Assembly: GCA_965215365.1 (NCBI GenBank) | Contig: CBDCDS010000003.1 | Span: forward strand, 416,001 to 480,000 | Direction of reading: 5' to 3' | Source: Gammaproteobacteria bacterium | Lineage (GTDB): Bacteria; Pseudomonadota; Gammaproteobacteria; Eutrophobiales; Eutrophobiaceae | Length of the DNA stretch: 64,000 nt | In this document: positions 10,173 to 62,185 of the stretch, piece by piece | Layout of the letters: each line of letters begins with the position of its first letter | How positions within the stretch are numbered: position 1 is the first letter of the stretch | Translations under genes and position numbers: made by a program | The notes under the pieces: generated by a model | The model's database searches: none | What the model was told of the DNA's origin: nothing | The model's input: only the letters and a program-made list of their open reading frames with translations

Positions 10173-10248
10173 TAAATGGAGCACTGACGCATTCTATTGA
10201 TAAACAAATCAACTTGATTATTCAAATTATCATGATAGATTGAACTTT

Positions 10249-11403: not shown

Positions 11404-11500
11404 CACCTCTGACTAGTTCAGCGGGAGCGACTAGCCTCCGATGCAGTGCGCCTTGCCACAATAAAAGGGGCTGAAAGATGGTCTGCAAAGATAGCCACGC

Positions 11501-11587
11501 ATCATCGAACTGCAAAAAGAATACCGAACCGAGTTGATTTCCGAGGCAATGACAGGCAAGATTAAAGTGCCGGGATTACCAACCTAG
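11501..11587 (+). pseudogene. hsdS: hsdS C-terminal remnant
   Basis: IIELQKEYRTELISEAMTGKIKV* matches the conserved HsdS tail. Confidence 0.7.
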
Positions 11588-11598
11588 GAGGTGTCCGC

Positions 11599-15161: not shown

Positions 15162-15226
15162 CCTGGCTCCTGATAAAGTGTTTACTGTTTTGTGGCTGTG
15201 TCGGCCTTGCTCGTCCCCTAATTCTT

Positions 15227-15252
15227 GATTCCGGGTCAAGCCCGGAATGACG
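15227..15252 (-). repeat. REP-like repeat
   Basis: GATTCCGGGTCAAGCCCGGAATGACG. Confidence 0.7.
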
Positions 15253-15272
15253 AGCGGAGTGGAATATATCGG

Positions 15273-16949: not shown

Positions 16950-16979
16950 TGTCCACTATGACGAACCTGAACATCAGTG

Positions 16980-21681: not shown

Positions 21682-21868
21682 GGGTATCTTCTGTCGTGTG
21701 CGCTCACGGGCCTGCAAAAACTTGAGCTTATTTCGTGTAGAAAGGGAACTGAACTGCGCCGTTGTGTGCAAGCCCACTTGAGGCGGGAAGCCTGATACGG
21801 TGCTCGCTGTTCCCACTTGAACCCCTGGTTCAAGTTTATTGCCTGTAACGGCACGACGGTTGATACCC
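21682..21868 (+). ncRNA. ssrS: 6S RNA
   Basis: Lies directly after zapA, ~187 nt long. Its ends pair (GGGTATC/GATACCC) and it has the conserved CTTGAACC..GGTTCAAG and GAAGCCT segments. Confidence 0.85.
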
Positions 21869-26356: not shown

Positions 26357-26415
26357 CCGGCGCGAGCTTCGCATCACTTGGTGAGATATGCGGGCTAGGT
26401 GAGATATGCGGGCTA
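26357..26415. mobile_element. MITE right end with tandemly doubled 18-bp TIR (GGTGAGATATGCGGGCTA x2)
   Basis: Matches 62145-62185. The terminal CTA is the stop codon of the TonB receptor. Confidence 0.8.
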
Positions 26416-28512
26416 AAACCGCCCGCTGATTGTCACGCGTGCGTTCAGCGGCGCGCCTACGGTGGCCTGGTGTGTACTGTGCGCGTTCGGGAAGTAGAGC
26501 TTGTCAGTCAGGTTCTCGACATTGACCTGAACACGCAGCTGGTCAGACACGTCATAGTAGGCCGAGGCGTCAAGGCGGGTATAGCTCGGCAGCGTCGCGC
26601 TATTGCCATTATTGATGAAACTTTCATCCTGGTAAGTCAGACCCAGGCCCAGGCCCAGCTTATCGGTGACCTGAAAGCTGTTCCACAGTGAGAACATATT
26701 TTCCGGCAGCTCGCGCGGGCGCAGTCCGGTCGGGCCGGCCCGATTGACCTGCTCACCGTCAAGATAGCTGTATCCGGCTGACACGAACCATCGGTCTGTG
26801 AGCAGCCCCTTGAGCTGCACCTCGACCCCTTCAATTTTTGTATCAATGACATCCAGGGTGGCCGGATCATTATCGGCAACCTGCGGCGAGCTTTGCTCAA
26901 TCTCGAACACCGCGGCCGTCAGGCTCAGGTCCTGGGCGAAATCCCATTTTATACCCGCTTCCAGGTTGGTGAACGTGTTCGGGTCCAACTGGTTATTGCT
27001 GCCATTGATGTTGGCGTACTGCTCGCCACTGCGCGGCAGGAAGGATTCACTGTAACTCCCGTACAATGAAATGTTTTCTCGCGGCTTGAAGACCAGGCCG
27101 ACCCGCGGTGTCACTTCTTCATCCTTGCGGCTGCGGGTTTCAGCCGCCGGGACATTGAACACCTTGATGTCGAAGCTGTCAAAGCGCGCGCCAACGATCA
27201 CATCCAGCCGCTCCGACACCTCAATCTCGTCTTGGATATAGACGGAAAACACCTCAATATCCACATGCGTATCGTCATTGAGATCGGCGCTGAAACTGTT
27301 TGTTGTGGTGACACCGGCGGCGTTGACACCGCTGTCTGCGCGCAGGTTGAGAGGGCGGCTGACGGTGAACACTTCATTGTCATCCGAGGTGGTGTCCCAG
27401 AACGAGTTAAAGCGATCCTGATTGGACGAGGTATCAATATATTCAGCGCCGACGACGACGGTGTGATTGATAGCGCCGGTGCCGAAGCCCCCGATCAGGT
27501 TGCCGGAGAACATCAGGCTTGCGCGCTGGGTCGTATCGATATAGCCATCGAGCGTCACCACCTCCGGCGTCGCTGCCTGATTATAGCCGGAGGCATAGAA
27601 GTTCTGGTACAGCTTGTCGTAATCCCCATAAAACAGGCTGACATTCGCTTTGAGTTGTTCTGAGAAGTCATGTTGCAGCGCGGCGCGCAGTACATGGGCT
27701 TGAAGCTGTTGATAGTTGCGTTCAGGGTCGCCGAAAACAATCTCGTGAAAGTCTTTGACCGGGCGGCCATCCGACCCGGTTGGAATGCCGCGATCAATCA
27801 CGCGGTCGTGATCGATGTATTCATAACTCAGATCAATAGTGGTATTCATGCCCGGTTCAAATTTAGCGGTCGGGTTGACGCCAAACCGATCACCGTCATA
27901 GAAATCGCGATGGTTGTTCAGCCCTTCATAAAACGCATTGATGCGAAAGGCCGAGTGCGCGCTGGCCGAAAAATTACCATCGACCTGAACATCAAATTCG
28001 CCGAAGGTATTTGAACTTGTCTTGTAGCCGGTGAAATTTTCGCCGATCACGCCTCTCTTGGTGACGCGGTTGAGGATGCCGCCAGTACCGCCACGCCCGA
28101 AAAAGAGCGCATTCGGGCCACGCAGTATTTCCACCTGTTCCAGGTTATACAGCGGGCGGTAATACTGAACGTCATCACGGACGCCGTCAATGAAGAAATC
28201 AGCCGTTGAGCGCACCCCCCGAAATACCACTGCGTCACGGTGACCCTCGCCCTGTGAGGTGTTGACGCCGGGGGTGTAGTCGATAATGTCGCCGACACTG
28301 GTGAAGCCCTGCAGGGTAATCTGGTCGGCGGTGACAATGGACAGACTCTGCGGCACATCAATGATAGGCGTCGGCGTTTTTAAGGCGTTCACCTGGTCTG
28401 TGTACAGATACTTCCCGGTGACGATGATCTCTTCCTGTTGCTGTTGCGCCAACGCCGTAAACGACAATCCGTACCAGACGACCAAGAGCCCGAACAAACG
28501 ATGATTATACAT
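26413..28512 (-). CDS. TonB-dependent (siderophore-type) receptor
   Basis: EEIIVTG TonB box, EQVEILRGPNALFFG, NVENLTDKLY, terminal F. Confidence 0.92.
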   Translation of the reverse strand: MYNHRLFGLLVVWYGLSFTALAQQQQEEIIVTGKYLYTDQVNALKTPTPIIDVPQSLSIVTADQITLQGFTSVGDIIDYTPGVNTSQGEGHRDAVVFRGVRSTADFFIDGVRDDVQYYRPLYNLEQVEILRGPNALFFGRGGTGGILNRVTKRGVIGENFTGYKTSSNTFGEFDVQVDGNFSASAHSAFRINAFYEGLNNHRDFYDGDRFGVNPTAKFEPGMNTTIDLSYEYIDHDRVIDRGIPTGSDGRPVKDFHEIVFGDPERNYQQLQAHVLRAALQHDFSEQLKANVSLFYGDYDKLYQNFYASGYNQAATPEVVTLDGYIDTTQRASLMFSGNLIGGFGTGAINHTVVVGAEYIDTSSNQDRFNSFWDTTSDDNEVFTVSRPLNLRADSGVNAAGVTTTNSFSADLNDDTHVDIEVFSVYIQDEIEVSERLDVIVGARFDSFDIKVFNVPAAETRSRKDEEVTPRVGLVFKPRENISLYGSYSESFLPRSGEQYANINGSNNQLDPNTFTNLEAGIKWDFAQDLSLTAAVFEIEQSSPQVADNDPATLDVIDTKIEGVEVQLKGLLTDRWFVSAGYSYLDGEQVNRAGPTGLRPRELPENMFSLWNSFQVTDKLGLGLGLTYQDESFINNGNSATLPSYTRLDASAYYDVSDQLRVQVNVENLTDKLYFPNAHSTHQATVGAPLNARVTISGRF

Positions 28513-28527
28513 TCTGTATCTCCTGTA

Positions 28528-28546
28528 AATAAGAATTATTATCATT
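28528..28546. promoter_or_regulatory. Fur box
   Basis: AATAAGAATTATTATCATT, 16/19 to AATGATAATCATTATCATT. Confidence 0.75.
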
Positions 28547-28634
28547 CAGCTTACCTTTTGAAAATAATATGTCAAGAATTTTTTTGAAATTTTTTGAGGT
28601 TCCCTTGAACGGGACATTGCTCATAAAAAATTTT

Positions 28635-28653
28635 GTTGCAAATAATTCTCATT
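28635..28653. promoter_or_regulatory. Second Fur box upstream of bfd
   Basis: GTTGCAAATAATTCTCATT, 13/19. Confidence 0.6.
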
Positions 28654-28704
28654 TATTCTATTATTCCTGACACTGATGAATTCGCAGGTGAGGAGTGTGT
28701 CCAG

Positions 28705-28941
28705 ATGTACGTGTGTGCATGTAACGCAGTAACAGAACGACAGATCCGGCAAGCCATCACTGACGGCGCCCGGACCAATGCCCAGCTTCGGCAACGGCTG
28801 GATGCCGCGCGCGTGTGTGGTTCTTGTGATGATTGTCTGGAGGAGTATCTTGCCGAAGCATCGGAACAACAGGAAAAACAGTATGAAATACCTACCCCTT
28901 TTGTTTTCCCTGCTCCTTGTTTTACCAACGGCGCCGGCTGA
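28705..28941 (+). CDS. bfd: Bacterioferritin-associated ferredoxin-like [2Fe-2S] protein
   Basis: MYVCACNAVTERQI..CGSC. Confidence 0.85.
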   Translation: MYVCACNAVTERQIRQAITDGARTNAQLRQRLDAARVCGSCDDCLEEYLAEASEQQEKQYEIPTPFVFPAPCFTNGAG

Positions 28942-29890
28942 GCAAGTCAACGTTTACTCCGGTCGCAAGGAAGCGCTGATTAAACCGCTGTTCGATAGGT
29001 TTACCCAGGAGACGGGGATCAGGGTCAACCTGGTCACCGGCAAGGCGGATGCTTTGATCAAGCGTCTGCAGCTTGAAGGCGAACGCTCCCCGGCCGACCT
29101 GTTGATTACTGTGGACGCCGGACGCCTGTACCGGGCGCAGGCGCTGGGCCTGTTGCAGCCGGTCTCGTCGGCGCAACTGGAACGCACAGTGCCGGAGGTG
29201 TATCGCGACCCGCAGGGCTATTGGTACGGCCTGTCAATCAGGGCGCGCGTGATCGTGTACGCCAGGGCGCGGGTAAACCCGGCGCAGCTTTCCACTTACG
29301 AAGCCTTGGCCGACCCCGTCTGGCGCGGGCAGCTTTGTGTGCGTTCAGCGGCCAATATCTATAACCAATCGCTGGTTGCCGCTATGCTTGTGCACCACGG
29401 CCAGGAAGCCACACAGCGATGGCTGCGCCGGCTGGTCGCCAATTTTGCCAGGGCTCCGAAAGGTGGTGACCGCGACCAGGTCAGGGCGGTGGCAGCCGGG
29501 CAGTGCCGGCTGGCGCTGGTTAATAGCTATTATCTGGCGGGTATGCTCAGTGCCAATATCGGCGCGGAAGTCGACGCGGCGCGCCAGGTGGCGCTGTTCT
29601 GGCCGAACCAGACCGACCGGGGCGTGCACGTGAACATCAGCGGTGCCGGGGTCACTCGTTCGGCACCGCACAAGGACCGCGCAGTGCGTCTGCTGGAATA
29701 TCTGGTGAGCGTACCAGCGCAGGAATGGTATGGTAAAACGAACCATGAATTTCCTGTCCGTGCCGGTGTGCCTCGGGGCGAGATACTGCAATCCTGGGGC
29801 GAGTTCAAGGCCGATGACCTGAACCTGACGGCGCTGGGAGAGAAAAACCATGCCGCCGTACGCGCCATGGACCGGGCCGGCTGGAAGTAA
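28883..29890 (+). CDS. Fe(III) ABC transporter substrate-binding protein (FutA/FbpA)
   Basis: VNVYSGR, SPADLLITVDAG, NIYNQS, NSYY, HVNISGAG. Confidence 0.9.
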   Translation: MKYLPLLFSLLLVLPTAPAEQVNVYSGRKEALIKPLFDRFTQETGIRVNLVTGKADALIKRLQLEGERSPADLLITVDAGRLYRAQALGLLQPVSSAQLERTVPEVYRDPQGYWYGLSIRARVIVYARARVNPAQLSTYEALADPVWRGQLCVRSAANIYNQSLVAAMLVHHGQEATQRWLRRLVANFARAPKGGDRDQVRAVAAGQCRLALVNSYYLAGMLSANIGAEVDAARQVALFWPNQTDRGVHVNISGAGVTRSAPHKDRAVRLLEYLVSVPAQEWYGKTNHEFPVRAGVPRGEILQSWGEFKADDLNLTALGEKNHAAVRAMDRAGWK

Positions 29891-30015
29891 GAGTTTTCTG
29901 CCTGCCCTCTGCTCGTCACTCCGGGCAGGCATGTTGCCTGACAAAAGGCAGATATACCATGGCCTCATGCCTTATCATGTATTCTGAATGTCTGTGGTTG
30001 CCATGATAAGCCTGT

Positions 30016-50260: not shown

Positions 50261-51541
50261 TTATCCCTGCTCCTCGGCTTGCAAATCTTCCGGCGTCAGG
50301 TCGTACAAATCCTGCACAGCCCGCAACATGGCCTGTTTTTCTCCGGCTTCAAGCCGGTGCAGCCGGGCGCTGGGGGGGTGCATCAATTTATTGGTCAGGG
50401 TGTGGGTAATCTCATGCAACAGGTCTTCGGGTTTGGCGCCGCCGCGCAGTTTTTGCAGCGCCGTTTCCAGCGCCTCCGCGCGCGCCTGCTGTGCCTGCCG
50501 CCGCAACGCCCGGATGGTGGCCACCGCGTCCTGCGAGTTGACCCAATCCATGAAATGGGTCACCTCGGTGTCGATAATCTGTTCCGCCTGCCGCGCCGCC
50601 GCCCGCCGGGTTTTGATGTTATCGTCGATAATGCCTTGCAGGTCGTCCACCGTGTACAGATAGACATCTTCCAGCTCGCCCACCTCAGCGTCCACATCGC
50701 GCGGCACCGCCATGTCGAGGATGAACACCGGCCTGTGTTTGCGCTTCAACAACGCGCGTTCCATCATGTCCCGGCGCAGCAACGGCGCCGGGCTGGCGGT
50801 GGCTGAGATGATGATATCGGCCTCGTCCAAGTGCTGCGGCAGTTCCTCCGGCGTTATGGTATAGGCGGAATACTGTCGCGCCAGACGCTGCGCCCGGTCC
50901 CGGGTGCGGTTGGCAACGATCATCTTTTGCAGGCCATTCTCATGCAGGTGTTTTGCGGCCAGCTCAATGGTCTCGCCGGCGCCGATGAGCAACACCGTTT
51001 GCCGGGACAGGTCGCCGAAGATATGCCGCGCCAGACGCACTGCGGCATAGGCCACGGACACCGGGTGGTTCCCGATCAGGGTATTGCTGCGCACCTCCTT
51101 GGCGACCTTGAACGAATGCTGAAACAACCGATTCAGCAACTTGCCGATACTACCGGCGGCAATGGCGGTCTGGTATGCCTGTTTCAGCTGCCCCAGCACC
51201 TGCGGCTCTCCAAGCACCATCGAATCCAGCCCGCTGGCCACCCTCAACATGTGTTTGACAGCGCCGGCGCCGGGGTGGGTATAGAGGTAGCTGCGCAATT
51301 CGTTATTCCGACAACCGTGAAACCCGGCGAACCAGTCGATGGGCCGGCTCGGGTCAGCCGCGTTCAGGTTGCAGTAAATTTCGGTGCGATTACAGGTAGA
51401 GAGAATGGCCGCCTCAGCAACGGCGCAGTCCCCGATCAACTCGGTCAACGCTCCGGACAACGCGTCGGCGCCGAAGGTCACCTTTTCGCGTACCTCCAGG
51501 GGAGCAGTCGTGTGATTGAGACCAAAAGCCAAAAGTGCCAT
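50261..51541 (-). CDS. hemA: Glutamyl-tRNA reductase
   Basis: GLNHTTAP, STCNRTE, GLDSMVLGEPQ, DMAVPRD. Confidence 0.96.
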   Translation of the reverse strand: MALLAFGLNHTTAPLEVREKVTFGADALSGALTELIGDCAVAEAAILSTCNRTEIYCNLNAADPSRPIDWFAGFHGCRNNELRSYLYTHPGAGAVKHMLRVASGLDSMVLGEPQVLGQLKQAYQTAIAAGSIGKLLNRLFQHSFKVAKEVRSNTLIGNHPVSVAYAAVRLARHIFGDLSRQTVLLIGAGETIELAAKHLHENGLQKMIVANRTRDRAQRLARQYSAYTITPEELPQHLDEADIIISATASPAPLLRRDMMERALLKRKHRPVFILDMAVPRDVDAEVGELEDVYLYTVDDLQGIIDDNIKTRRAAARQAEQIIDTEVTHFMDWVNSQDAVATIRALRRQAQQARAEALETALQKLRGGAKPEDLLHEITHTLTNKLMHPPSARLHRLEAGEKQAMLRAVQDLYDLTPEDLQAEEQG

Positions 51542-51619
51542 CGCGGTTACCCGAATATGATCTGTCACCGCTAATTTGCGGGACATTCAGACTGTGAGAG
51601 TTTACCACGAGTCACCAGA

Positions 51620-51882
51620 CCTTGTTTGTGCATCACAACTCATGACCCACCTGCCCATGCACACCTTCCGCCGTCGCGTCCAACTCTACCGCGGCAATCG
51701 CTACGTCAAGTCTTTCACCTGCCTCGACCAGTTCCTATGCCTGGCCTTCGCCCAACTCACCTAGGCGCACTTCCGCCAGACCAAGTCCGCCGTGAAACTG
51801 CATACCTTACTAGTACTCTTTCCATGTCTCCGACGGTACACTCCACGATGTCAAGGTCATTGACTTGTTCAGCCTCGATCCC
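51620..51882 (+). mobile_element. IS4-family (DUF4372) transposase remnant with internal deletions
   Basis: SQLMTHLPMHTFRR..KSFTCLDQFLCLAFAQLT, then AHFRQTKSAVKLHTLL, then HVSDGTLHDVKVID. Confidence 0.75.
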
Positions 51883-51970
51883 GCGCCTGCTATATCATAG
51901 ACCGCGCAGTCCTTTATTTTTCTTTGCTGTTCTGTTTTAATCAGCGCACGTTTGTCTGGTAAAGAATCTC

Positions 51971-52028
51971 GTTCGTCATTCCGGGCACTGCCTCAAGGCC
52001 AGGGCCGGCCCGCGCTGGAATGACGAAC
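51971..52028. repeat. REP-like hairpin GTTCGTCATTCC...GGAATGACGAAC
   Basis: 12-bp inverted repeat upstream of secA. Confidence 0.65.
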
Positions 52029-52072
52029 GCGGGAACACACTATTCGGCTCTGGCTCGTCACCCAAGGTTAGG

Positions 52073-54763
52073 ATGTTCAGAACTTTTTTCACAAAAATTT
52101 TCGGCAGCAGAAACGCCCGCGTCTTAAAGAGGATGCACAAGGCTGTGGCGCGCATCAACGCGCTGGAAGCGGAAATAGCCGCGCTGTCCGACGCAGAGTT
52201 CCCGCACCGGACTGCGCACCTGAAGTCTAGGTTCGAACGCGGCGAGACTCTGGAAGAGCTCCTGCCGGAGGCCTTTGCGCTGGTGCGTGAAGCCGGCAGG
52301 AGAACCCTGAACATGCGCCATTTCGATGTGCAACTGCTGGGCGGGATGGTGCTGCATCAAGGCAACATCGCCGAAATGCGCACCGGTGAGGGCAAGACCC
52401 TGGTGGCAACCTTGCCCGCGTATCTGAATGCCCTCACCGGTGCTGGCGTGCATATCATCACGGTCAACGATTATCTGGCGCAGCGCGATGCACAATGGAT
52501 GGGTGCCATCTACGCGTTCTTAGGAATGACGGTCGGGGTGATTGTATCCGGCCTCAACAACGAGGAGCGCCGGCGCGCATACAGCGCGGATATTACCTAT
52601 GGAACCAACAATGAGTTCGGTTTCGATTATCTGCGCGATAACATGAAGTTCCAACGCGACGATCAGGTACAAGGCAGCCTGAAGTACGCGATAGTGGATG
52701 AAGTTGATTCCATCCTGGTTGACGAAGCGCGCACGCCGCTGATTATCTCCGGCACAGTCGATGACCGTTCCGACCTGTACCTGAGCATGAACAGGATAGT
52801 GCCGCGCCTGACGCTGCAGCAGGATGAAGGCGCTGAGGGTGATTATGTGCTGGACGAAAAGAGCAAGCAGGCCTACTTGACGGAAACGGGGCACGACCGG
52901 GTGGAACAGCTGTTGCTGGAGCACAAGATCATGCAGCCCGGCATGAGCTTGTACGATCCGGTAAATATCCCTATCCTGCATCATCTGAACGCGGCGCTGC
53001 GCGCCCACGCCCTGTTCCACAACGATGTGGATTATATTGTGCAGAATAATGAAGTGGTGATTGTCGATGAGTTCACCGGCAGGACTATGCCGGGGCGGCG
53101 CTGGTCTGACGGTTTGCACCAGGCTATCGAGGCCAAGGAAAATGTCACCATTCAGAATGAAAACCAGACCCTGGCCACCATCACCTACCAGAATTATTTC
53201 CGCCTCTATGAAAAGCTGGCCGGCATGACCGGCACCGCAGACACCGAGGCGTATGAGTTTCAGCAGATCTACGGCCTGGAAGTGGTGGTGGCGCCCACGC
53301 ACCTGCCCATGATCAGGGATGACCAGGCGGACATGATCTACCTGAGCGCGCGCGAGAAGTTCAGTGCCATCATCGACGATATCAAGTCCTGCCAGACGCA
53401 GGGGCAACCGGTGCTGGTCGGCACCGTGTCCATAGAAGTATCGGAGTACCTGTCCGGCCAGTTGCAAAAGCAGAAGATCAAACACCAGGTGTTGAACGCC
53501 AAGTACCATGAAAAAGAAGCCGAAATCATCGCTCAGGCCGGTCGTCCGGGTACGGTGACAATTGCCACAAATATGGCCGGACGCGGCACTGACATCGTAC
53601 TGGGCGGCAACCTGGACGCAGAGCTCAAGAGCTTAGGAGAGGTTGACGCAGCGACGCTGGAACAGGCGCGCGCGGCGTGGCAGACGCGCCATGACCAGGT
53701 GGTCGGCGTCGGCGGGTTGCGCATTATCGGCACTGAACGGCATGAATCCAGGCGTATCGACAACCAGTTGCGGGGGCGTGCGGGACGCCAGGGCGACCCG
53801 GGTTCAAGCCGGTTCTATATCTCGCTGGAGGATGACCTGATGCGTATTTTTGCATCGGAACGGGTGTCGGCCATTATGCAGAAACTGGGCATGGAAGAGG
53901 GAGAGGCCATCGAATCCAACCTGGTGACCCGGGCCATAGAAAACGCGCAACGAAAAGTGGAAGCCCACAACTTCGATATTCGTAAGCATTTGCTGGAATA
54001 TGACGATGTCGCCAACGACCAGCGCAAGGTCATTTATGAATGGCGCAAGGAGCTGCTGGGCGGGGATGACATCTCCACGGATATCCTTACCATGCGCGCA
54101 GATGTTATCAAAGGTATTTTTACAACCCACATTCCTCCCGGCAGTGTGGAGGAGCTGTGGAATGTCGCAGACTTAACGGAGGCGCTCAGCAATGAATTGA
54201 ACGTGCAGCTGCCGTTGCAAGAGTGGTTGGACCAGGACGACAACTTGGATGAGGAGGCGTTGCTGGCAAAGGTTACTGCAAACGTGGCCGCTGAGGTGGA
54301 ACACAAGCATCACGCGCTGCCGGAAGAAATGGTGCGCCGGGTGGAAAAAGGGCTGATGCTCGATACCCTGGACCGGCATTGGAAAGAGCATCTGGTGGCC
54401 ATGGACCACCTGCGCCAGGGCATCGGGCTGCGCGGTTACGCAGCCCGGAATCCCAAGCAGGAATACAAAAAAGAGGCCTTCGCCATGTTTAGCGCGATGC
54501 TGGAAAATATCAAGTACGATGTTGTGACCCTGCTCGCCAAGATACAGCTCCGGGAAGGGCAGGAGGCGCAACTGTTGCCGCGCCGCGCCCAGCCTGCGGC
54601 CATGCAATTCAATCATCCGGCCGCGCCCGACACTCTGGGCAAACGGGAACAGCCGCCTCAACAAAAGCCGTTTATCCGTGAGCAGAGAAAGATCGGCCGC
54701 AATGAGCCCTGTCCGTGCGGTTCCGGGAAGAAATACAAACTTTGTCATGGCAAGCTGAGTTAG
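52073..54763 (+). CDS. secA: Preprotein translocase SecA
   Basis: [41 protein letters not shown]. Confidence 0.98.
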
Positions 54764-54794
54764 CTTTGCACGAGTACCAGGAAGCGAAATCAAT

Positions 54795-56000
54795 TTGAAC
54801 AAAGCTCTGTATCCTGTTAACGGTATCCGGCTGGCCGCGGCTTCGGCGGGTAGCTACGGCCAGGTGCGTGATGATCTGGCCCTGTTCGAGCTCTGTGACG
54901 GCGCTCGCCTCAGCGCAGTGTTTACCCGCAACCGGTTTTGCGCGGCGCCGGTGAGGGTTGCCAGAGAGCATCTGCGCCAGCGGGCGGCGCGTTACCTGCT
55001 GGTGAACGCCGGTAATGCCAATGCCGGCACCGGCGCCCGAGGGGTTACCGATGCCGTGCAGGTGTGCCGCGCACTGGCGTCTTGCGCCGGGTCTGAGCCG
55101 GAGGCAGTGTTGCCGTTTTCCACCGGGGTGATCGGGGAGTATCTGCCGGTCGATAAAATCTGTCGGGCGCTGCCGACTTTGCTCGACAAACTGACCGCTG
55201 AGGCCTGGCACGACTGCGCCCGGGCCATCATGACTACCGATACGCGCCCCAAGGCGCGCTCAGTACAGTTCAACCTTGACGGTAATACGGCGACCGTAAC
55301 CGGCATCGCCAAAGGCGCCGGGATGATCAAACCGGATATGGCCACCATGCTGGCGTTTATCGCCACGGACGCGGCGTTGCAGCAACCGGTGCTGGAGCGC
55401 ATTCTGGCCGCGGCCGTGCAGCAGTCATTCAACCGCATCTGTGTGGACGGCGACACCTCCACCAATGACGCCTGTGTACTGGTAGCCACCGGTCAGGGGC
55501 AGGCCGGCCACCCACCCATCACCGAACACAGCCCGGCTTACCAACAACTGCAGCAGCAGGTCACGGCGCTCTGTATCGGTCTGGCCCAGGATCTTGTTCG
55601 GGATGCCGAGGGCGCGACAAAATTCGTCACCGTCCAGGTGGATAATGCCGCCAGTGCAGCTGACTGCGACGCGCTGGCGGCAGCCATAACCACCTCGCCA
55701 CTGGTCAAAACTGCGCTCTACGCAAGCGACCCCAACTGGGGCAGGATCCTGGCTGCGTTGGGCCGCAGCAAAGCCGCCAGACTGGATATCAACAAGGTGT
55801 CCATATACTTGAACCAGGTGTGTATCGTAACCAACGGTGCCAGGGCCGCAGACTATACCGAGGAGCAAGGTGCCGCCGCCATGCAGCAGGAAGAAATCGA
55901 TATTCGCATCGACTTAAATCAGGGCGTTGCCAGCGCCTGCTACTGGACCTGTGACTTGTCCCATGATTACGTCACCATTAACGCAGAGTACCGGACCTGA
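54795..56000 (+). CDS. argJ: Bifunctional ornithine acetyltransferase
   Basis: GNANAGTG, KGAGMIKPDMATML, DTSTND, DPNWGR. Confidence 0.95.
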   Translation: MNKALYPVNGIRLAAASAGSYGQVRDDLALFELCDGARLSAVFTRNRFCAAPVRVAREHLRQRAARYLLVNAGNANAGTGARGVTDAVQVCRALASCAGSEPEAVLPFSTGVIGEYLPVDKICRALPTLLDKLTAEAWHDCARAIMTTDTRPKARSVQFNLDGNTATVTGIAKGAGMIKPDMATMLAFIATDAALQQPVLERILAAAVQQSFNRICVDGDTSTNDACVLVATGQGQAGHPPITEHSPAYQQLQQQVTALCIGLAQDLVRDAEGATKFVTVQVDNAASAADCDALAAAITTSPLVKTALYASDPNWGRILAALGRSKAARLDINKVSIYLNQVCIVTNGARAADYTEEQGAAAMQQEEIDIRIDLNQGVASACYWTCDLSHDYVTINAEYRT

Positions 56001-56022
56001 GGGCGGCTAACCCGCCAGGCCG

Positions 56023-57000
56023 ATGGGTAGCAGACAGCAGGTTGTGCTGGGTGTCATCTGCGACCCCAGCGGCAGCAAGGCGCTGGTCGCCCGGCGCGCG
56101 CCGGGTTCGCATCTTGGCGGTTTTTGGGAATTCCCCGGCGGCAAGGTGCGGCCCGGCGAAGCTGCGCTGGCAGCCCTCAAGCGCGAACTTCATGAAGAGG
56201 TGAATATAGAGGTTGGCGGCTGCACCCCGCTGCTCTCGTTCGATTACGACTACCCGGACCGGTCATTGCACTTCAAGGTATGGAAGATCCACGACTGGGC
56301 CGGCGCCGCAACCGGCAAGGCAGGACAGGAAACTCGCTGGCTGGACCTCTCGGCGCTATCGGTGCGGGATTTTCCTCCTGCCAACAGAGGCATTATCAAC
56401 GCCTGCCGGCTACCGCCGCTGTATCTTATCACCCCGCCCCTGCAGCGTGACCCGGCGGCTGCTGTAAAGCAGTTGCAGGAATATCTGGCCGCTGGCGTAA
56501 AACTGGTGCAATTCAGGAGTAAAACAGCGCCTCACCCCGACTCCGCGCTGGCGCAAATGATCGACGCGTGCACCAGCGCCGGCGCTGAGTTGCTGGTCAA
56601 TGCCACCCCGGAGTTGGCCCTGCGCGCCGGTGCGGCCGGCGTCCACCTCAACAGTCAGCGCCTGCGGCAAACCTTAACACGCCCGCTGCCTGCCGCGTCC
56701 TGGGTTGCCGCCTCCTGCCACGACCTTGACGAATTGCGTCATGCGGCACTAATCGGCGTTGACTTCTGTGTGCTGTCCCCGGTGCGCAAGCCCACCGGCA
56801 AGGACGGCATGGCGCTGGGCTGGGAGCGGTTTTCCGACCTGGTCGGCAAGTTGCCGATACCCGTTTATGCGCTGGGTGGAATGAAGCTGTCCGACCTCGA
56901 GCAGGCCCGACAATACGGCGCCCAGGGCATCGCCTTGATCAGCGACGTTTGGAGCCGGGCGGATGCTGCCGCAAGGCTTGGCCGGTTACACCTCGGTTAA
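56023..57000 (+). CDS. MutT Nudix hydrolase fused to a thiamine-phosphate-synthase-like barrel
   Basis: WEFPGGK..RELHEE Nudix box; GVHL, ASCH, YALGG. Confidence 0.9.
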   Translation: MGSRQQVVLGVICDPSGSKALVARRAPGSHLGGFWEFPGGKVRPGEAALAALKRELHEEVNIEVGGCTPLLSFDYDYPDRSLHFKVWKIHDWAGAATGKAGQETRWLDLSALSVRDFPPANRGIINACRLPPLYLITPPLQRDPAAAVKQLQEYLAAGVKLVQFRSKTAPHPDSALAQMIDACTSAGAELLVNATPELALRAGAAGVHLNSQRLRQTLTRPLPAASWVAASCHDLDELRHAALIGVDFCVLSPVRKPTGKDGMALGWERFSDLVGKLPIPVYALGGMKLSDLEQARQYGAQGIALISDVWSRADAAARLGRLHLG

Positions 57001-57062
57001 CCCGCAGAGCTCACCAAGTCGCTTGTTGCCTTATGAAACATTTTTGCTATCAAAAAGTTAGG
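56998..57062. mobile_element. MITE left end beginning in the TAA stop of the Nudix gene
   Basis: TAACCCGCAGAGCTCACCAAGTCGCTTGTTGCCTTATGAAACAT. Confidence 0.8.
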
Positions 57063-57135
57063 AGCATAGTGATACCTGAGGCTGTCTGGACACTGTTTCT
57101 GGTTGGCGAGCCAGTGATATATTCCAGAAACGTGC

Positions 57136-57240
57136 TTGAGTAGCGTTTTACAAGATCAAACATCGTGACTATAATCTATCGTTAGAATAGCATTTTACAA
57201 GATCAAACATCGTGACTATAATCAACCGTTGAGTAGCGTT
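57136..57240 (+). repeat. ~47-bp tandem duplication (about 2.3 copies) upstream of the glycine-rich-domain gene
   Basis: TTTTACAAGATCAAACATCGTGACTATAATC at 57146 and 57193; TTGAGTAGCGTT at 57136 and 57229. Confidence 0.85.
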
Positions 57241-57243
57241 AAG

Positions 57244-57750
57244 ATGAACAAACAGCAAATTTTACTGAAATTGGACCTCGAGCCCATCATCATCAAGGCC
57301 ATGGACGAGGATGAGGGTAGCGGATGGTCTCTTGGCCTTGCTTGTCGTATTGCGGAAGAATACCGTAAGTTTCTTATTCTCTGTTTTGAGAATCCGGATG
57401 AACCCGTTGTCCCTTCCAGTTTTGTCGATGACTTCTGGCACCTGCATATACTTGATACACAAAAGTACATGGAGGACTGCCACCAATATCTTGGTTACAT
57501 GCTGCATCACTTTCCTTATTTCGGGATGAGGGGCGAGGAAGATGCGAAAAATCTACGACAAGCATGGGAGAAAACGCTGGAGTTATATGAATCAACATTC
57601 GGTAAATCCGCGCCTTCCGATCTATGGCCTAAGTCCAATCGTTGTCCTAACTGCGGACGTCGTTCCAGCAGAGGAGACAGTGGGCACATAAACCGGCCTG
57701 TTTTTGATGAGAGAAGACCCAAGTTGGTTGATATGGGGCTTGTCATCTAG
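57244..57750 (+). CDS. Glycine-rich-domain (GRDP/DUF1399-like) family protein
   Basis: EYRKFL, PSSFVDDFWHLHILDTQKY, LHHFP motifs; C-terminal CPNC. Confidence 0.75.
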   Translation: MNKQQILLKLDLEPIIIKAMDEDEGSGWSLGLACRIAEEYRKFLILCFENPDEPVVPSSFVDDFWHLHILDTQKYMEDCHQYLGYMLHHFPYFGMRGEEDAKNLRQAWEKTLELYESTFGKSAPSDLWPKSNRCPNCGRRSSRGDSGHINRPVFDERRPKLVDMGLVI

Positions 57751-57766
57751 TTGTATGTTTTTGTAG

Positions 57767-58033
57767 GCTATTTTTTCAGTAGTAGTATCCTCATATATAT
57801 TTAGCGCTGATTTCAGTAACACCAAGCTTTCAAGAGTCAATTTTTCCGATAGTGTTTTGATCAATTGTGTTTTTGACAAGACAGATTTATCAGAATCCAA
57901 TTTTGTCGCGTCCAATCTGAAAGAATCATCCATCACTCAAGAACAGGTCAATAGAATAGGAGATACCAATCTCAAAGACGCTGTTCTGCCTGAGGGCTTA
58001 TCGCTGGCGAATAGAGAAGCCAACTCCAGCTGA
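57767..58033 (+). pseudogene. Pentapeptide-repeat protein C-terminal fragment (not in the ORF track; no start)
   Basis: ADFSN TKLSR VNFSD SVLIN CVFDK TDLSE SNFVA SNLKE..NLKDAVLPEG..*; in-frame TAG at 57764. Confidence 0.75.
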
Positions 58034-58074
58034 AACAAGATACACAAGTTCCAGTGAAAGCCACCCAATCACCA

Positions 58075-58107
58075 TAAGGCCACCTCTAATTAATAGAGGT
58101 GGCCTTA
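58075..58107. terminator. 14-bp stem hairpin between convergent genes
   Basis: TAAGGCCACCTCTA-ATTAA-TAGAGGTGGCCTTA. Confidence 0.65.
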
Positions 58108-58126
58108 ATACCAACTGACTTACCAG

Positions 58127-58849
58127 TCAGAACGCCAACCCGGTTCCGAGATCGAGGCCCAGCAATGCTGCCGCGCTGCCGCCGTTCACGGCAATCTCCA
58201 CCAGCCTTTGAGAGTTGCAATACCAAAAGGCTGTACCCGGCGGGACGGATGAAAAAGTGTGTGCGTGGGAAACCGTAAAACCGTTCACTCGTATTACCCT
58301 GTTATGTTCCGGTATCTCAGCCCTGATCCCGGTCATGCAGTTGCCGAAGTGGTCGATGTAGATAATCTCCGCAAGGTCGTCCGGCCAGTCGTGCCGGTCT
58401 TTCCAGAGTGTTTTCACACCGGGTATCTCATTGCTGCTGAGTCTGGCCGCGATCGGGGCGTACAAATCGCGGCCGTGGAAGCTGGCAGATAACGTTTGCG
58501 GTTCACAGTCAACATGCCAGCATTGCACCCCGGGACTACGCCGGCAGACGATGTCGAACAGGCCGTTGTCCGGTCCGACGTACCATTGTCCGTCCGCGCT
58601 GATGATGACGGGCTGATGCTGAAAATTACCGACGCCAGGATCTACCACGGCAAAGAAGATCGTCCCCGGCGGTGCCTCACAGGCGCGGCTGCACGAAGCC
58701 AGCAGGTACGCTGCGGCCCTGGGATCGTTACGGGGTGCATCAGCCAGTAGATTGATAACTTTCTCGCCCGGTGCCAACCGGTGCAACACCGCCTGCACCT
58801 GCCCCAGATAAGGCCCCGCCCAACCGTAATCGGTAAACAGCGCGATCAT
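58127..58849 (-). CDS. SAM hydrolase / SAM-dependent halogenase family (DUF62)
   Basis: LFTDYG, VVDPGVG, GPDNG, SFHGRD, YIDHFGN, EIAVNGGSAA. Confidence 0.9.
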   Translation of the reverse strand: MIALFTDYGWAGPYLGQVQAVLHRLAPGEKVINLLADAPRNDPRAAAYLLASCSRACEAPPGTIFFAVVDPGVGNFQHQPVIISADGQWYVGPDNGLFDIVCRRSPGVQCWHVDCEPQTLSASFHGRDLYAPIAARLSSNEIPGVKTLWKDRHDWPDDLAEIIYIDHFGNCMTGIRAEIPEHNRVIRVNGFTVSHAHTFSSVPPGTAFWYCNSQRLVEIAVNGGSAAALLGLDLGTGLAF

Positions 58850-58889
58850 GCTGCAATGATAGCATGAGCGGATTTGGGAATTTACACGT

Positions 58890-61583
58890 GCTTCAATGAG
58901 GCCGCAGCATCGATGCTGCGGAATATGCAAGGAGATTATCTGCGACACTGACGCGCTGCTAGTGCTTCAATGAGGCCGCAGCATCGATGCTGCGGAATAT
59001 GTCCAGTACGACAGACAAGCAGACTTTCAAAGATTCTGCTTCAATGAGGCCGCAGCATCGATGCTGCGGAATATGCCGGGGATAGAGGGATCACGCCAAA
59101 GGCCAGTGTAGCTTCAATGAGGCCGCAGCATCGATGCTGCGGAATATGGGCTTTCGGCGATTTGTCTGGTGCGGATATTATATGCTTCAATGAGGCCGCA
59201 GCATCGATGCTGCGGAATATCAGGCCTGTACATTGCACGATGCAAGAGAACCGCAGCTTCAATGAGGCCGCAGCATCGATGCTGCGGAATATGTGGCAAT
59301 GAGCGTGGAGATGATGATTAAAAAGATATGCTTCAATGAGGCCGCAGCATCGATGCTGCGGAATATGAAGTAGCTTATGTTAAAGGTAAGTTGGACGGGG
59401 TACTTGCTTCAATGAGGCCGCAGCATCGATGCTGCGGAATATTCCACTCTGGCGAAACGCTGGTTACATGCGCATATGGCTTCAATGAGGCCGCAGCATC
59501 GATGCTGCGGAATATCACAAATAACAGCAATATCCGGTCAGCGATGCCGGGTTGCTTCAATGAGGCCGCAGCATCGATGCTGCGGAATATTTTACCGCTG
59601 ATCCCCTGACCGAGTCACAGCGGAACGCTTCAATGAGGCCGCAGCATCGATGCTGCGGAATATCAGTCATGGCAGTCTCTCAGAGTTAGCTCCTGGCAAG
59701 CTTCAATGAGGCCGCAGCATCGATGCTGCGGAATATATATTTTACGCCTAAGTTTCGCGCCAAAACAAAATCGGCTTCAATGAGGCCGCAGCATCGATGC
59801 TGCGGAATATCACATCGACTGGCTGAACCGTTGGATCGTTCGTGGGCTTCAATGAGGCCGCAGCATCGATGCTGCGGAATATAACTGCTAATCTCATCAT
59901 GCGCGTTAAGCACTTCGCCGCTTCAATGAGGCCGCAGCATCGATGCTGCGGAATATATGCGCCGGATAGCGATGATAATGCACCGACCGATCCGCTTCAA
60001 TGAGGCCGCAGCATCGATGCTGCGGAATATGACGCTGACCTAGCCGGCGCCAACTTGGTCGGCGCGCTTCAATGAGGCCGCAGCATCGATGCTGCGGAAT
60101 ATCAGCGCGACTCGGCTAGCGAGTAATCGAATCCAGCGCTGCTTCAATGAGGCCGCAGCATCGATGCTGCGGAATATAACAGTAGTTCTGGATTATGTTT
60201 TTTTTACTTATAAGCTTCAATGAGGCCGCAGCATCGATGCTGCGGAATATGCTGCGATCATTGAGGACGGCGCCTCAGTTGATCGGCTTCAATGAGGCCG
60301 CAGCATCGATGCTGCGGAATATACGTCAAAGTAACAGTCACGATTAATCACCGTCCACTTGCTTCAATGAGGCCGCAGCATCGATGCTGCGGAATATTCC
60401 GAGGCCGGGGGATCTGGTCTATTACGACCGCACGCTTCAATGAGGCCGCAGCATCGATGCTGCGGAATATGTCCGACAGGCAAATCGGCGCCGACAAAAG
60501 CAGGCAGCTTCAATGAGGCCGCAGCATCGATGCTGCGGAATATGAAGTGATGCCCCGAATCTTCGTAAGTGATTTTTATAGCTTCAATGAGGCCGCAGCA
60601 TCGATGCTGCGGAATATAGTCGCGGACTGGCTAGCAGGACTTGGCGTTACGGATGCTTCAATGAGGCCGCAGCATCGATGCTGCGGAATATCATCGCTTT
60701 CAACACGCTCCGTCGTCGGCTTAAATTGCTTCAATGAGGCCGCAGCATCGATGCTGCGGAATATCCTGAATTGCCCGCCTGACGTGCCTTACACTGCCAC
60801 AGCTTCAATGAGGCCGCAGCATCGATGCTGCGGAATATGTCAGCAGACCGATTAATTTTGACAATCCTGAAAACGCTTCAATGAGGCCGCAGCATCGATG
60901 CTGCGGAATATCTATCGCGCGCAACAATCCGCCAATATCGCCAGGACCGGCTTCAATGAGGCCGCAGCATCGATGCTGCGGAATATGTGTAACTGGTTTA
61001 TCAGCGCTACCCATCCGGGTCCGCCGCTTCAATGAGGCCGCAGCATCGATGCTGCGGAATATTTGGTGCCATGATGGAATGTGTCAGGATGGAAGGTGCG
61101 CTTCAATGAGGCCGCAGCATCGATGCTGCGGAATATAACAGCAAGCCATCGAATTACAAGAACCCGTAACCCGCGCTTCAATGAGGCCGCAGCATCGATG
61201 CTGCGGAATATCGGCGTTCCGCGCTGAATCTTGTTTAGCCATACTCTCATGCTTCAATGAGGCCGCAGCATCGATGCTGCGGAATATACCATTACGGGAG
61301 CTGCATTCACTTGCACCGTTTCCGAGCTTCAATGAGGCCGCAGCATCGATGCTGCGGAATATACTCCACAGCAGCCCCGGCAACCACCCAGTAGGTGCCG
61401 CTTCAATGAGGCCGCAGCATCGATGCTGCGGAATATCCGAGATAAGCGCACTGTCATAGTCGGGAATCTCAAGCTTCAATGAGGCCGCAGCATCGATGCT
61501 GCGGAATATAAGGCGCCAATCTGAGCGGCGCCGACCTGAGCGCCGCGCTTCAATGAGGCCGCAGCATCGATGCTGCGGAATAT
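58890..61583 (-). CRISPR. CRISPR array with 37 identical 37-bp repeats (ATATTCCGCAGCATCGATGCTGCGGCCTCATTGAAGC) and 36 spacers of ~35-39 bp; type I-G-like
   Basis: Counted directly. The CCTCATTGAAGC 3' end and adjacency to the cas4/1 fusion support type I-G. Confidence 0.98.
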
Positions 61584-61787
61584 ACGCTGTTCATAACCTG
61601 TTGATTCACAAAAGGTATGGAGTACCATTTCGAGAGGTTTCGATAAATCATAAACCGGCTCCGTTACAGCTCTGTCCCAAGCGGATGTTATTGCTTATAA
61701 GCATTTATTGTTAAAGAACATTTTACCATTCGAGAACTGCCCGGGGAAGCGGTGACCACTCCAGCACTCGTTCGGCGCAGGCGGCGT
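61584..61787 (-). promoter_or_regulatory. CRISPR leader
   Basis: AT-richer non-coding stretch between cas2 and the first repeat. Confidence 0.75.
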
Positions 61788-62078
61788 TCAGACAACGATG
61801 GGTTCTTTCTGCACCGCTTGAAACTCCTTGCCCAGACTTACAACCTTGGGCTTCACCATATCCGCCTGACCCAGGTCCACAAGTATAACATGGTCTTCCT
61901 TATGGTGGATTATTTCATCCAGCGTGGCGACCAGTTCTGCATGACGCAAGCGCGACAGCCGGCATTGGAAGACGGAAAGCTGCAACCATTCTCCGTAGCC
62001 GTGCAGCAGCCTGAATATCTTGCGCCATCTTTTCTGGTCGGCAATGTCGTAGGCGATGATGTATAAATGTTCATCCAC
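61788..62078 (-). CDS. cas2: CRISPR-associated Cas2
   Basis: [24 protein letters not shown]. Confidence 0.95.
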
Positions 62079-62083
62079 GATGC

Positions 62084-62185
62084 TAACCCGCAGATCTCAC
62101 CAAGTCGCTTGTTGCCTTGTGAAACATGATGGTTCTCAATAGGTCCGGCGCGATCTTCGCATCACTGGGTGAGATCTGCGGGCTA
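62084..62185. mobile_element. Complete 102-bp MITE between cas1 and cas2
   Basis: TAACCCGCAGATCTCACC...GGTGAGATCTGCGGGCTA, with (C)TA on both sides. Confidence 0.88.

Follow-up and report, generated by a model that had tools for sequence, protein, structure and literature searches.

Copies of a short repeat and the genes beside them

The window, by which we mean the whole 64-kb stretch of DNA that was analyzed, contains parts of one short repeat at five loci and a 13-nt scrap at a sixth. The 16-nt motif found at the ends of this repeat has nine matches in the window when up to two mismatches are allowed, compared with 0.18 expected from shuffled sequences, and nine matches were reached in none of the 100 shuffles (0/100). 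All nine matches (9/9) are flanked by TA. We mapped the copies with nhmmer, using a profile of 20 full-length relatives, and they are as follows.

26357..26394, plus strand: right-arm fragment (nhmmer 26357-26397, profile 208-248, E=1.3e-9)
26395..26416, plus strand: CTAG, a second 15-bp right TIR (26398-26412) and CTAA (26413-16)
34629..34750, plus strand: complete short copy whose 15-bp TIRs are perfect; element proper 34633-34746 (114 bp)
39792..39810, plus strand: solo right TIR (1 mismatch) followed by CTAA (nhmmer 39789-39809)
39811..39942, plus strand: left 132 nt of the long (~240-bp) form (nhmmer 39808-39942, profile 2-137, E=3.5e-24)
45415..45427, plus strand: 13-nt scrap made of the tip of the right TIR and CTA (blastn-short E 0.05-0.09)
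56997..57075, plus strand: TTAA followed by 75 nt from the left of the element, whose TIR has 1 mismatch (nhmmer 56998-57075, profile 2-80, E=1.8e-13)
62083..62186, plus strand: complete short copy in the cas1/cas2 gap, its 15-bp TIRs also perfect; element proper 62087-62182 (96 bp)

The genes found at these copies are listed below with their Pfam support.

26413..28545, minus strand: TonB-dependent receptor (Plug and TonB_dep_Rec_b-barrel, E=5e-57)
34757..36748, minus strand: RTX-repeat protein (HemolysinCabind, E=4e-45)
39860..43033, minus strand: RND (AcrB-type) efflux pump (ACR_tran over residues 4-1019 of 1057)
56023..57000, plus strand: Nudix/thiamine-phosphate-synthase (ThiE) fusion (TMP-TENI E=3e-34, NUDIX E=2e-16)
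61788..62078, minus strand: cas2 (CRISPR_Cas2 E=4e-18)
62183..63901, minus strand: Cas4-Cas1 fusion (Cas_Cas1 E=2e-86, Cas_Cas4 E=5e-19)

A first reading of this DNA, made from the sequence only, had described three stop codons that coincide with an end of the repeat, and these overlaps are real and concern Pfam-supported genes. The TAG stop of the TonB receptor (26413-26415) lies inside the 4-mer flanking an element end, the TAA stop of the Nudix-ThiE gene (56998-57000) lies inside the flanking TTAA and the TAG stop of the Cas4-Cas1 gene (62183-62185) lies inside the flanking 4-mer of the copy in the cas1/cas2 gap. The C-terminus of the receptor reads ...SGRF*, a terminal Phe being the canonical end of TonB-dependent receptors. 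Past the other flanking 4-mer of the cas1/cas2 copy the GTG start of cas2 follows after 5 nt, and the empty site reconstructed for this junction reads as it had been written in the sequence-only reading. The RTX gene is near its copy without overlapping it, its TGA stop being located 6 nt past the right 4-mer of the element. At the RND pump the element contributes coding sequence, the last ~28 codons and the TGA stop being encoded by element DNA, and homology of the pump to solved RND pumps stops at residues 1016-1023.

Observation of the individual copies reveals how much of the element each of them retains. Next to the TonB receptor the right-arm fragment ends in a 15-bp right TIR at 26380-26394, which is an exact match, and is followed by the second right TIR (nhmmer match 26395-26415), and with these two TIRs the element end is tandemly duplicated within 26380-26416 (18 bp). 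The fold of 26395..26416 is weak (z -1.0) and this segment is therefore not a hairpin. The complete copy beside the RTX gene (nhmmer span 34630-34749) is flanked by TTAG and CTAA, which are non-identical and match at 2/4 positions, and its fold is one long hairpin, with a dG of -52 to -56 kcal/mol and a z of -8 to -9.7. The CTAA that follows the solo right TIR also serves as the left flank of the next copy, so that the two meet end to end, and this junction folds into a 13-bp hairpin (z -6.1). The next copy has no right part and is fused with the RND pump gene at that gene's 3' end. The right part is also absent from the copy at the Nudix-ThiE gene. Finally, the copy in the cas1/cas2 gap joins 60 nt from the left end of the long form to 40 nt from its right end (nhmmer match 62083-62185, profile 1-63 and 207-248), is flanked by CTAA and CTAT (3/4 positions match) and forms a hairpin with a dG of -45.8 (z -4.7 to -6.2). 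Where six loci had originally been thought to share the element end, five are recovered with nhmmer, but the significance of 45415-45427 is doubtful because it is only 13 nt long and is not recovered with the profile. Two of the locus ends first proposed, 39907 and 57062, were too short and are moved by nhmmer to 39942 and 57075.

A dispersed element with a 4-bp target duplication

One exact-pattern scan provided a related sample of 50 loci, spread over 9 MAGs of Ca. Azotimanducaceae and relatives, so that at least nine related genomes carry dispersed copies of the element. A right TIR was found at 34/50 of these loci with a strict regular expression and at 43/50 with a fuzzy search allowing up to two mismatches. 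The element proper measures 66-468 bp in the 43 two-ended related copies, with a mode of 239-242 bp, and 96-132 bp in the window, which holds four left ends. The ends CCCGCA...TGCGGG are present in all copies, and the TIRs are perfect over 15 bp, with the sequence CCCGCA(T/G)ATCTCACC ... GGTGAGAT(A/C)TGCGGG. Truncated and internally deleted copies occur. The element encodes nothing, no transposase lies between its ends, and at 66-468 bp it is too short for one. The sequence-only reading had proposed a MITE-like family on the grounds of TIRs, a duplicated target, dispersed copies and the lack of coding capacity, and this view is upheld.

As that reading had also stated, the Pfam search revealed no transposase, and no autonomous element with these TIRs, within the window. 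No autonomous parent with these TIRs was found among the 50 related loci with their 2-kb flanks and no transposase next to 7 truncated copies, and plasmid BLAST gave no match for the 120-bp window copy or for a 263-bp stretch of the relative OZ220714 that includes a 239-bp copy. At the level of titles and listings, the literature on the host family, on bacterial MITEs and on stop codons gave no description of this family. The MITE family is new, with uncultured marine Gammaproteobacteria as hosts, and related MITE systems are already known.

The copy of OZ220714 is located at the junction between a FAD monooxygenase gene and glnS, where the window is empty. The two regions are syntenic by blastn over window positions 14889-18863, and tblastn of the window against this locus gives 88.8% for GlnS and 70.5% for the FAD protein.

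16950..16979, no strand: empty orthologous site in the window, a 30-nt spacer from the stop of the FAD monooxygenase gene to the start of glnS (from the junction sequences)

We then consider the sequences that flank the two ends. In 31 of the 43 two-ended related copies one and the same 4-mer stands on both sides as a direct repeat, while shuffled pairings of the same 4-mers gave on average 11.5 identical pairs and at most 20 (10,000 shuffles). CTAG accounts for 16 of the 31 perfect pairs, CTAA for 8, TTAA for 4 and TTAG for 1, and CTAT and CTGG are also found. The 4-mers are non-identical in 12/43 copies, including both complete window copies. An extended target logo revealed no consensus outside the 4-mer YTAR, that is (C/T)TA(A/G).

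The sequence-only reading had taken the duplication to be TA, as in IS630-like elements, and had assigned to the terminal purine of the element the role of restoring the stop. An IS630/Tc1-mariner-like MITE of this kind would agree with the TA found at all the TIR matches of the window and with the purine that stands beside TA at every end, and IS711, of the IS5 family, is indeed described as duplicating only the TA of its YTAR target (PMC2266754). The outer positions 1 and 4 of the 4-mers, however, match as direct repeats in 38/43 and 37/43 copies, whereas the complementarity expected of element tips is seen in only 30/43. In addition, pairs such as CTAA/CTAA, TTAG/TTAG, CTAT/CTAT and CTGG/CTGG are impossible if TA is duplicated and the tips are complementary, and the off-consensus CTAT and CTGG are duplicated whole. 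A sibling element also argues against a TA duplication. It is 176 bp long, has related TIRs and lies nested at TTAA within two of the related loci (L042 and L043), while four others (L012, L016, L024 and L046) retain the unoccupied TTAA, the empty site having one TTAA and the filled site two. We consequently find an IS630-like origin of the pattern very improbable. The target duplication is 4 bp, (C/T)TA(A/G), and not TA. Because TAR is entirely part of the duplicated YTAR, the stop is not rebuilt by the first base of the element; what had been read as a first element purine is part of the duplicated target, and the entire stop codon is copied.

The stability of the hairpins (z -4.7 to -9.7, with 0/200 shuffles as stable), the conservation of a TCAA-N4-KTR motif at positions 47-48 in 39/54 copies and the fact that no transposase was found might instead suggest a structured repeat maintained by the host, REP/BIME-like or an RNA element, that stabilizes or processes mRNA and is spread by recombination. 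The hairpin stability follows trivially from the TIRs, and such a repeat fits poorly with the duplication of a target whose sequence varies between loci, with the sibling nested with its own duplication and with the truncated and internally deleted copies. Moreover, neither the window copies nor 7 related loci matched any Rfam family at the gathering score, and a promoter and terminator scan of 34500-40050 gave no promoter-like (sigma-70-like) site and a single terminator-like site, which is not at an element. A host-maintained repeat is thus, in our opinion, highly unlikely.

Stop codons and the background of target sites

Using gene calls, for the counts as for the background, from our own best-start codon-model caller, which was trained on the same sequences and is not a validated gene finder, we found a called gene stop inside a flanking 4-mer at 15 of the 50 related loci. 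The gene concerned has Pfam support in 12/15 cases. Seven left ends and nine right ends are on stops, so that the overlap occurs in both orientations, as had been supposed. The flanks of these loci (171,946 nt) contain 61 TA sites at stops and 611 in intergenic DNA, and for YTAR 110 sites in CDS, 87 in intergenic DNA and 24 at stops. YTAR sites are scarce (~1.3 per kb) in these genomes of 58-62% GC, and about a fifth of the non-coding ones are stop codons (38% for CTAG).

The outcome of the comparison depends on the background chosen. Stop overlap is enriched over TA sites, of which 9.1% are at stops (15/50 versus 0.091, binomial p=2.4e-5), but not over non-coding YTAR sites, of which 21.6% are (0.216, binomial p=0.105). 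A null weighted by 4-mer type predicts 12.1 of the 50 copies on stops compared with the 15 seen (P=0.19), and the odds ratio in the related sample is 1.55 (p=0.32). A target motif together with purifying selection is enough to explain the stop pattern, and homing to stops is unneeded because stop overlap is not enriched over the YTAR background. Between the two explanations initially offered, a dedicated stop-targeting strategy and a survivor bias in a TA-poor genome, the data favor the second.

Several observations nevertheless go in the direction of a preference for gene ends in addition to the 4-bp motif, steered by the transposase or by a host factor, either of which might respond to ribosomes at termination, to zones where transcription ends or to the local structure of the DNA. 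In the window 3/5 stop-YTAR sites are occupied versus 2/45 intergenic ones (Fisher p=0.005), but this statistic is post hoc, the window having been singled out for the very pattern that prompted the finding. When the samples are combined, 18/53 copies are on stops versus 0.216 (p=0.026). Copies of the CTAA/TTAG type are on stops in 7/14 cases compared with a background of 7/50 (14%), again post hoc, and 10/35 of the non-stop copies have a called stop no more than 35 nt upstream of them. Against these figures, the excess in the independent sample is the small one given above and no target signal extends beyond the 4-mer, and stronger selection against promoter or 5' insertions than against 3' insertions yields the same skew. 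We therefore consider an additional preference for gene ends unlikely.

Taken together, we estimate at roughly 0.8 the probability that the repeats are deletion derivatives of a ~240-bp MITE that inserts at YTAR and that their bias towards gene ends results from target and selection. For such a MITE, a DDE transposase from another locus of the genome would bind the TIRs in trans, make 4-nt staggered cuts at YTAR and insert the element. YTAR offers TAA or TAG on both strands, so that insertion at a stop preceded by a pyrimidine copies the whole stop, and the upstream stop copy still ends the gene whichever the orientation of the MITE. Selection would remove the copies inside coding sequence, and many surviving copies would be on gene ends because YTAR is scarce and about 1/5 of the non-coding YTAR sites are stops, with no sensing of stops.

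Target specificity alone can thus make a selfish element seem to home to gene ends, and in a GC-rich genome a target bearing TAA or TAG on both strands places ~30% of the surviving copies exactly on stops. The annotation of these marine Gammaproteobacteria, which are abundant, is affected as well, since gene 3' ends, and the C-terminus of one pump, are element-derived, and at least one start codon, that of glnS in the relative, appears to be so as well.

Judging from the junction sequence, the essential gene glnS of OZ220714 appears to start at an ATG carried by the TIR. The T variant of the TIR has, pointing outward, a Shine-Dalgarno-like GGTGA and then an ATG, which could restart a downstream gene, while the duplicated target would give the stop of the upstream gene. 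The TIR-borne ATG is in frame and open with 9/29 adjacent outward genes, about the one in three expected by frame alone (an estimate, not computed), and it is therefore not a general adaptation. The joint reading in which an IS1380/piggyBac-like transposase with a relaxed YTAR target moves an element with operon-compatible ends seems rather unlikely to us. If the ends were operon-compatible, the MITE could live in operons, as between cas1 and cas2, at almost no cost, and an IS1380/piggyBac-like parent would be a useful bacterial model of TTAA-type target choice.

Relation to known systems

By our comparison the parent would fit the IS5 group by its target duplication and IS1380/piggyBac by its CCC...GGG ends. 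Target duplications of IS1380 are 4-5 bp. The ends of the IS5 group start with GG, from which the CCC...GGG ends of the MITE would differ; no IS5-type transposase (DDE_Tnp_1) was linked to these ends, and the commonest target of the MITE is CTAG (16/31 perfect pairs). The IS5 (E. coli) group is described as having 4-bp target duplications of the form YTAR (PMC5009759). The MITE resembles it in its 4-bp YTAR duplication, in its TIRs of ~15-16 bp and in the bias of its survivors to non-coding DNA. Most piggyBac TIRs are reported to begin with 5'-CCC (PMC10813416), and piggyBac has been paired with IS1380-like elements (PMC5718144). With these the MITE shares the 4-bp duplication, TIRs starting with 5'-CCC and the presence of TTAA among its targets (4/31); piggyBac is, however, nearly strict for TTAA whereas the MITE uses mostly CTAG and CTAA.

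Like RUP and Correia/NEMIS, the MITE is a small repeat bounded by TIRs. The duplication of both RUP, which is tied to IS630-Spn1, and Correia/NEMIS is TA, whereas that of the MITE is 4 bp. Insertion at TA is also a property of Correia/NEMIS. The strict IHF core of the 155-bp Correia form was found in only 3/54 copies of the MITE. RUP is described as inserting at TA-containing targets, RUP and Correia/NEMIS as intergenic and located beside genes, and NEMIS transcripts as forming stem-loops (PMC2229807).

A parallel for the RND pump copy, which supplies C-terminal residues and a stop, is provided by QMITE1 and QMITE2 of Coxiella burnetii, which are reported to do so sometimes, copies of these MITEs extending 1-50 bp into functional genes at their 3' ends (PMC5896051). 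For QMITE2, duplications of 7-9 bp and TIRs of 23-29 bp are given (PMC10969869). Unlike in the QMITE elements, the overlap of the MITE described here with gene ends arises because the target itself includes a stop codon.

Copies of the element in the window

We searched the window by nhmmer with a profile made from 20 full-length relatives of the element, a MITE-like repeat of about 240 bp with 15-bp TIRs. The end motif occurs nine times (at most 2 mismatches) against 0.18 expected, none of 100 shuffles reached nine, and TA flanks all nine matches. The copies and fragments are as follows.

Element copies in the window
26357-26397, + strand: right-arm fragment (profile positions 208-248), then a second end copy at 26395-26415
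34630-34733, + strand: copy (profile positions 2-106), right TIR added at 34730-34749
39792-39806: solo right TIR, with one common CTAA between it and the left end of the copy that follows
39808-39942, + strand: copy (profile positions 2-137)
56998-57075, + strand: copy (profile positions 2-80)
62083-62144 and 62144-62185, + strand: copy (profile positions 1-63 and 207-248)

All window copies share one orientation, with left ends at 34633, 39811, 57001 and 62087 and the right-arm fragment at 26357, and from these alignments they appear to be deletion derivatives of a single master element of about 240 bp. Folding gives a long hairpin for both complete copies, with dG values of -46 to -56 kcal/mol and z scores of -4.7 to -9.7. 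Next to the TonB receptor stop, the element end consists of two exact tandem copies of an 18-bp unit (TIR plus CTA) at 26378-26413, which replication slippage or a nested or abortive insertion could have produced. At 45415-45427, a 13-nt TIR scrap scores weakly (E 0.05-0.09) and was not recovered by the profile search; its ATG is the dgkA start given by the ORF finder (45418). Beside this scrap lies a small hairpin of the AAAAATGCC-N-TCCGTGGCATTTTT type (45428-45452) which, with a similar one about 40 nt to the right of the element in one related locus (L033), may represent another short repeat family.

Genes at the element ends were checked by Pfam and by their translated C-termini, which bore out three stop overlaps first noticed from the sequence alone.

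Genes whose stop is overlapped by an element end
26413-28545, - strand: TonB-dependent receptor, C-terminus ...RF, then TAG stop
56023-57000: Nudix/TMP-TENI fusion, TAA stop
62183-63901, - strand: Cas4-Cas1 fusion, TAG stop

The element between cas1 and cas2 measures 96 bp and cas2 starts 5 nt past its other side; a CRISPR array (58890-61583, Rfam CRISPR-DR16) with 38 copies of a 37-nt repeat adjoins cas2 and the Cas4-Cas1 fusion. An RTX-repeat gene ends in TGA, and the copy at 34633-34746 follows 6 nt beyond. An RND pump gene (39860-43033, minus strand) enters the truncated copy for about 28 codons and stops inside it; of its 1057 residues, the Pfam ACR_tran match stops at 1019 and similarity to solved pumps at 1016-1023. 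Elsewhere, the window carries a 6S RNA gene (21685-21866, Rfam RF00013, 87.5 bits) downstream of zapB/zapA, and likely defence or foreign genes at 1173-2387, 10240-13281 and 32829-34613, in DNA of lower GC (0.50-0.52 at 10-14 kb). These are a GmrSD-type endonuclease, an AAA_14/DUF4143 ATPase and two paralogous HATPase_c_4 plus Fic-like_C proteins, one also with Schlafen AlbA_2.

Relatives of the element and its duplicated target

One exact-pattern scan of a species-representative genome collection, with the left TIR and subterminal bases as query, led to the identification of 50 loci (L numbers below), spread over 9 MAGs that carry the labels Ca. Azotimanducaceae, Ca. Azophilus, Gammaproteobacteria or Pseudomonadales. 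None of the 50 shares the flanks of the window, whose own genome therefore lies outside the scanned collection. The 64-kb window has 4 instances of the 28-nt scan pattern, against at most 13 in a MAG chromosome of 4.3-5.3 Mb, so that the genome of the window probably holds many more copies. All 50 loci have the T variant of the TIR and none the G variant (CAGATC), which makes up 4 of the 9 window TIRs. A right end (at most 2 mismatches) was found in 43 loci, the other seven being truncated (L007, L019, L021, L035, L037, L038 and L044). In the 43 two-ended copies the element proper ranges from 66 to 468 bp (mode 239-242 bp), and the longer forms have extra internal modules: the long copies L017, L027, L048, L014 and L004 vary in their internal GC-rich hairpin modules (about 50 nt) and tandem repeats (about 33 nt). 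The family is modular, perhaps with further nested small repeats as the source. Two pairs of loci are orthologous (L014/L023 and L015/L018).

In 31 of the 43 two-ended copies, one and the same 4-mer is directly repeated on the outer side of both TIRs (CTAG 16, CTAA 8, TTAA 4, TTAG 1, CTAT 1 and CTGG 1), whereas shuffling of partners gave a mean of 11.5 and a maximum of 20 in 10,000 trials. Position 1 of the 4-mer matches in 38/43 copies and position 4 in 37/43. This contradicts the TA duplication proposed by the sequence-only reading, whose prediction (left position 4 complementary to right position 1) is true in only 30/43. The duplicated target is 4 bp, YTAR, with no extended consensus outside it. 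It follows that the terminal purine, earlier taken as the element's own base, is part of the duplicated target and that the entire stop codon is copied. Imperfect pairs occur in both complete window copies (TTAG/CTAA; CTAA/CTAT) and in 12/43 relatives.

In L042 and L043 (OZ244830), a sibling MITE of 176 bp, whose TIRs are related (CCTGCATCCGTCACC...), lies nested inside the primary element about 175 nt from its left end, with a TTAA on each side; four other copies of the same genome (L012, L016, L024 and L046) have an empty site with a single TTAA. In two species (L025, OZ220714; L044, OZ241347) the element sits at TTAA before the same downstream gene, whose first 15 residues are identical when read from the TIR ATG. 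Opposite element ends face the gene, which points to independent insertions at a single site, or to inversion.

The window holds an empty counterpart of an insertion in L006 (OZ220714), a locus syntenic with window 14889-18863 (GlnS 88.8% and FAD monooxygenase 70.5% identical). In L006 a 239-bp copy lies between the monooxygenase gene, whose stop is within the flanking 4-mer, and glnS; at the same junction the window has a 30-nt spacer (16950-16979) with CTAT at 16956-16959 and no element. The flanking 4-mer of L006 includes nt 2031, where GlnS homology starts. This essential gene appears to take its start codon from the element, because the TIR ATG (...GGTGAGATATG...) is the sole in-frame start codon upstream and is preceded by an in-frame TGA. 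Read outward, the T-variant TIR gives GGTGA then ATG (L006:2014-2035; compare window 16947-16982). A general role of the TIR ATG as start codon was rejected: of 29 adjacent genes that read outward, 9 are open and in frame with it, close to the one in three that we estimate from frame alone.

Stop codons and the background of target sites

Genes were called with a home-made codon-usage model, for which the window and the loci served as training set; the best-scoring start was chosen. Out of the 50 loci, 15 have the stop of a called gene within the flanking 4-mer (L001, L004, L006, L007, L014, L016 on both sides, L026, L032, L036, L041, L042, L043, L046, L047 and L048), with seven stops at left and nine at right ends. 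Pfam backs the stop-bearing gene in 12 of the 15; those of L001 and L047 have no Pfam match and that of L004 is outside the Pfam set. L023, ortholog of L014, has a weak Pfam match to a gene that was not called and is not among the 15. As background we used 171,946 nt of flanks, excluding sites within 60 nt of a locus end and, for the seven truncated loci, the right flank.

Background sites
YTAR: CDS 110, intergenic 87, stop codon 24; stop codons 21.6% of non-coding sites (CTAG 38%)
TA: CDS 2959, intergenic 611, stop codon 61; stop codons 9.1% of non-coding sites

The 15 of 50 are a strong stop-codon enrichment over TA sites (p=2.4e-5) but not over YTAR sites (p=0.105; 15/48, p=0.078, with each orthologous pair counted once), and a null weighted by 4-mer type expects 12.1 copies (P(>=15)=0.19). 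Any extra bias to gene 3' ends beyond the target motif is at most modest. In its favour, window YTAR sites (elements and CRISPR array masked) are occupied at 3/5 stop codons versus 2/45 intergenic positions (Fisher p=0.005), although this stretch was picked for that very pattern; adding its three stop-sited copies to the 50 loci gives 18/53 (p=0.026). CTAA/TTAG-type copies are on stops in 7/14 cases versus 7/50 in the background, a post hoc comparison, and 10 of the 35 copies off stops lie within 35 nt downstream of one. We read the overlap as accounted for by target motif and purifying selection: the pattern is real, yet ordinarily explained.

Parent family and comparison with known elements

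Pfam found no transposase domain in 48 window ORFs, upholding what had been said from sequence, nor in 13 genes next to the seven truncated relatives, and plasmid sequences gave no match to the element. In title-level literature searches we found no published description of this family and no YTAR-type MITE tied to stop codons; the element adds a new family to an already known kind, the MITEs. An IS630-type origin, suggested earlier, is excluded by the duplication being 4 bp and not TA. The parent candidates are IS5 and IS1380, between which a transposase is needed to decide. IS5-group ends begin GG; IS1380 elements have CC ends and duplications of 4-5 bp.

The element resembles IS5 in its 4-bp YTAR duplication, the reported IS5 signature (PMC5009759); for IS711, another member of the IS5 family, a duplication of just the TA within YTAR is reported (PMC2266754). 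It resembles piggyBac in its CCC...GGG termini and 4-bp duplication with TTAA among targets (PMC10813416), and IS1380-like elements are reported as the prokaryotic counterpart of piggyBac (PMC5718144). A term search of a 2024 review of prokaryotic MITEs did not return "stop codon" (PMC10969869). Repeats with coding-compatible ends have been reviewed (PMC2229807), and Coxiella MITEs are reported to overlap the 3' ends of functional genes, at times giving C-terminal residues and the stop (PMC5896051).
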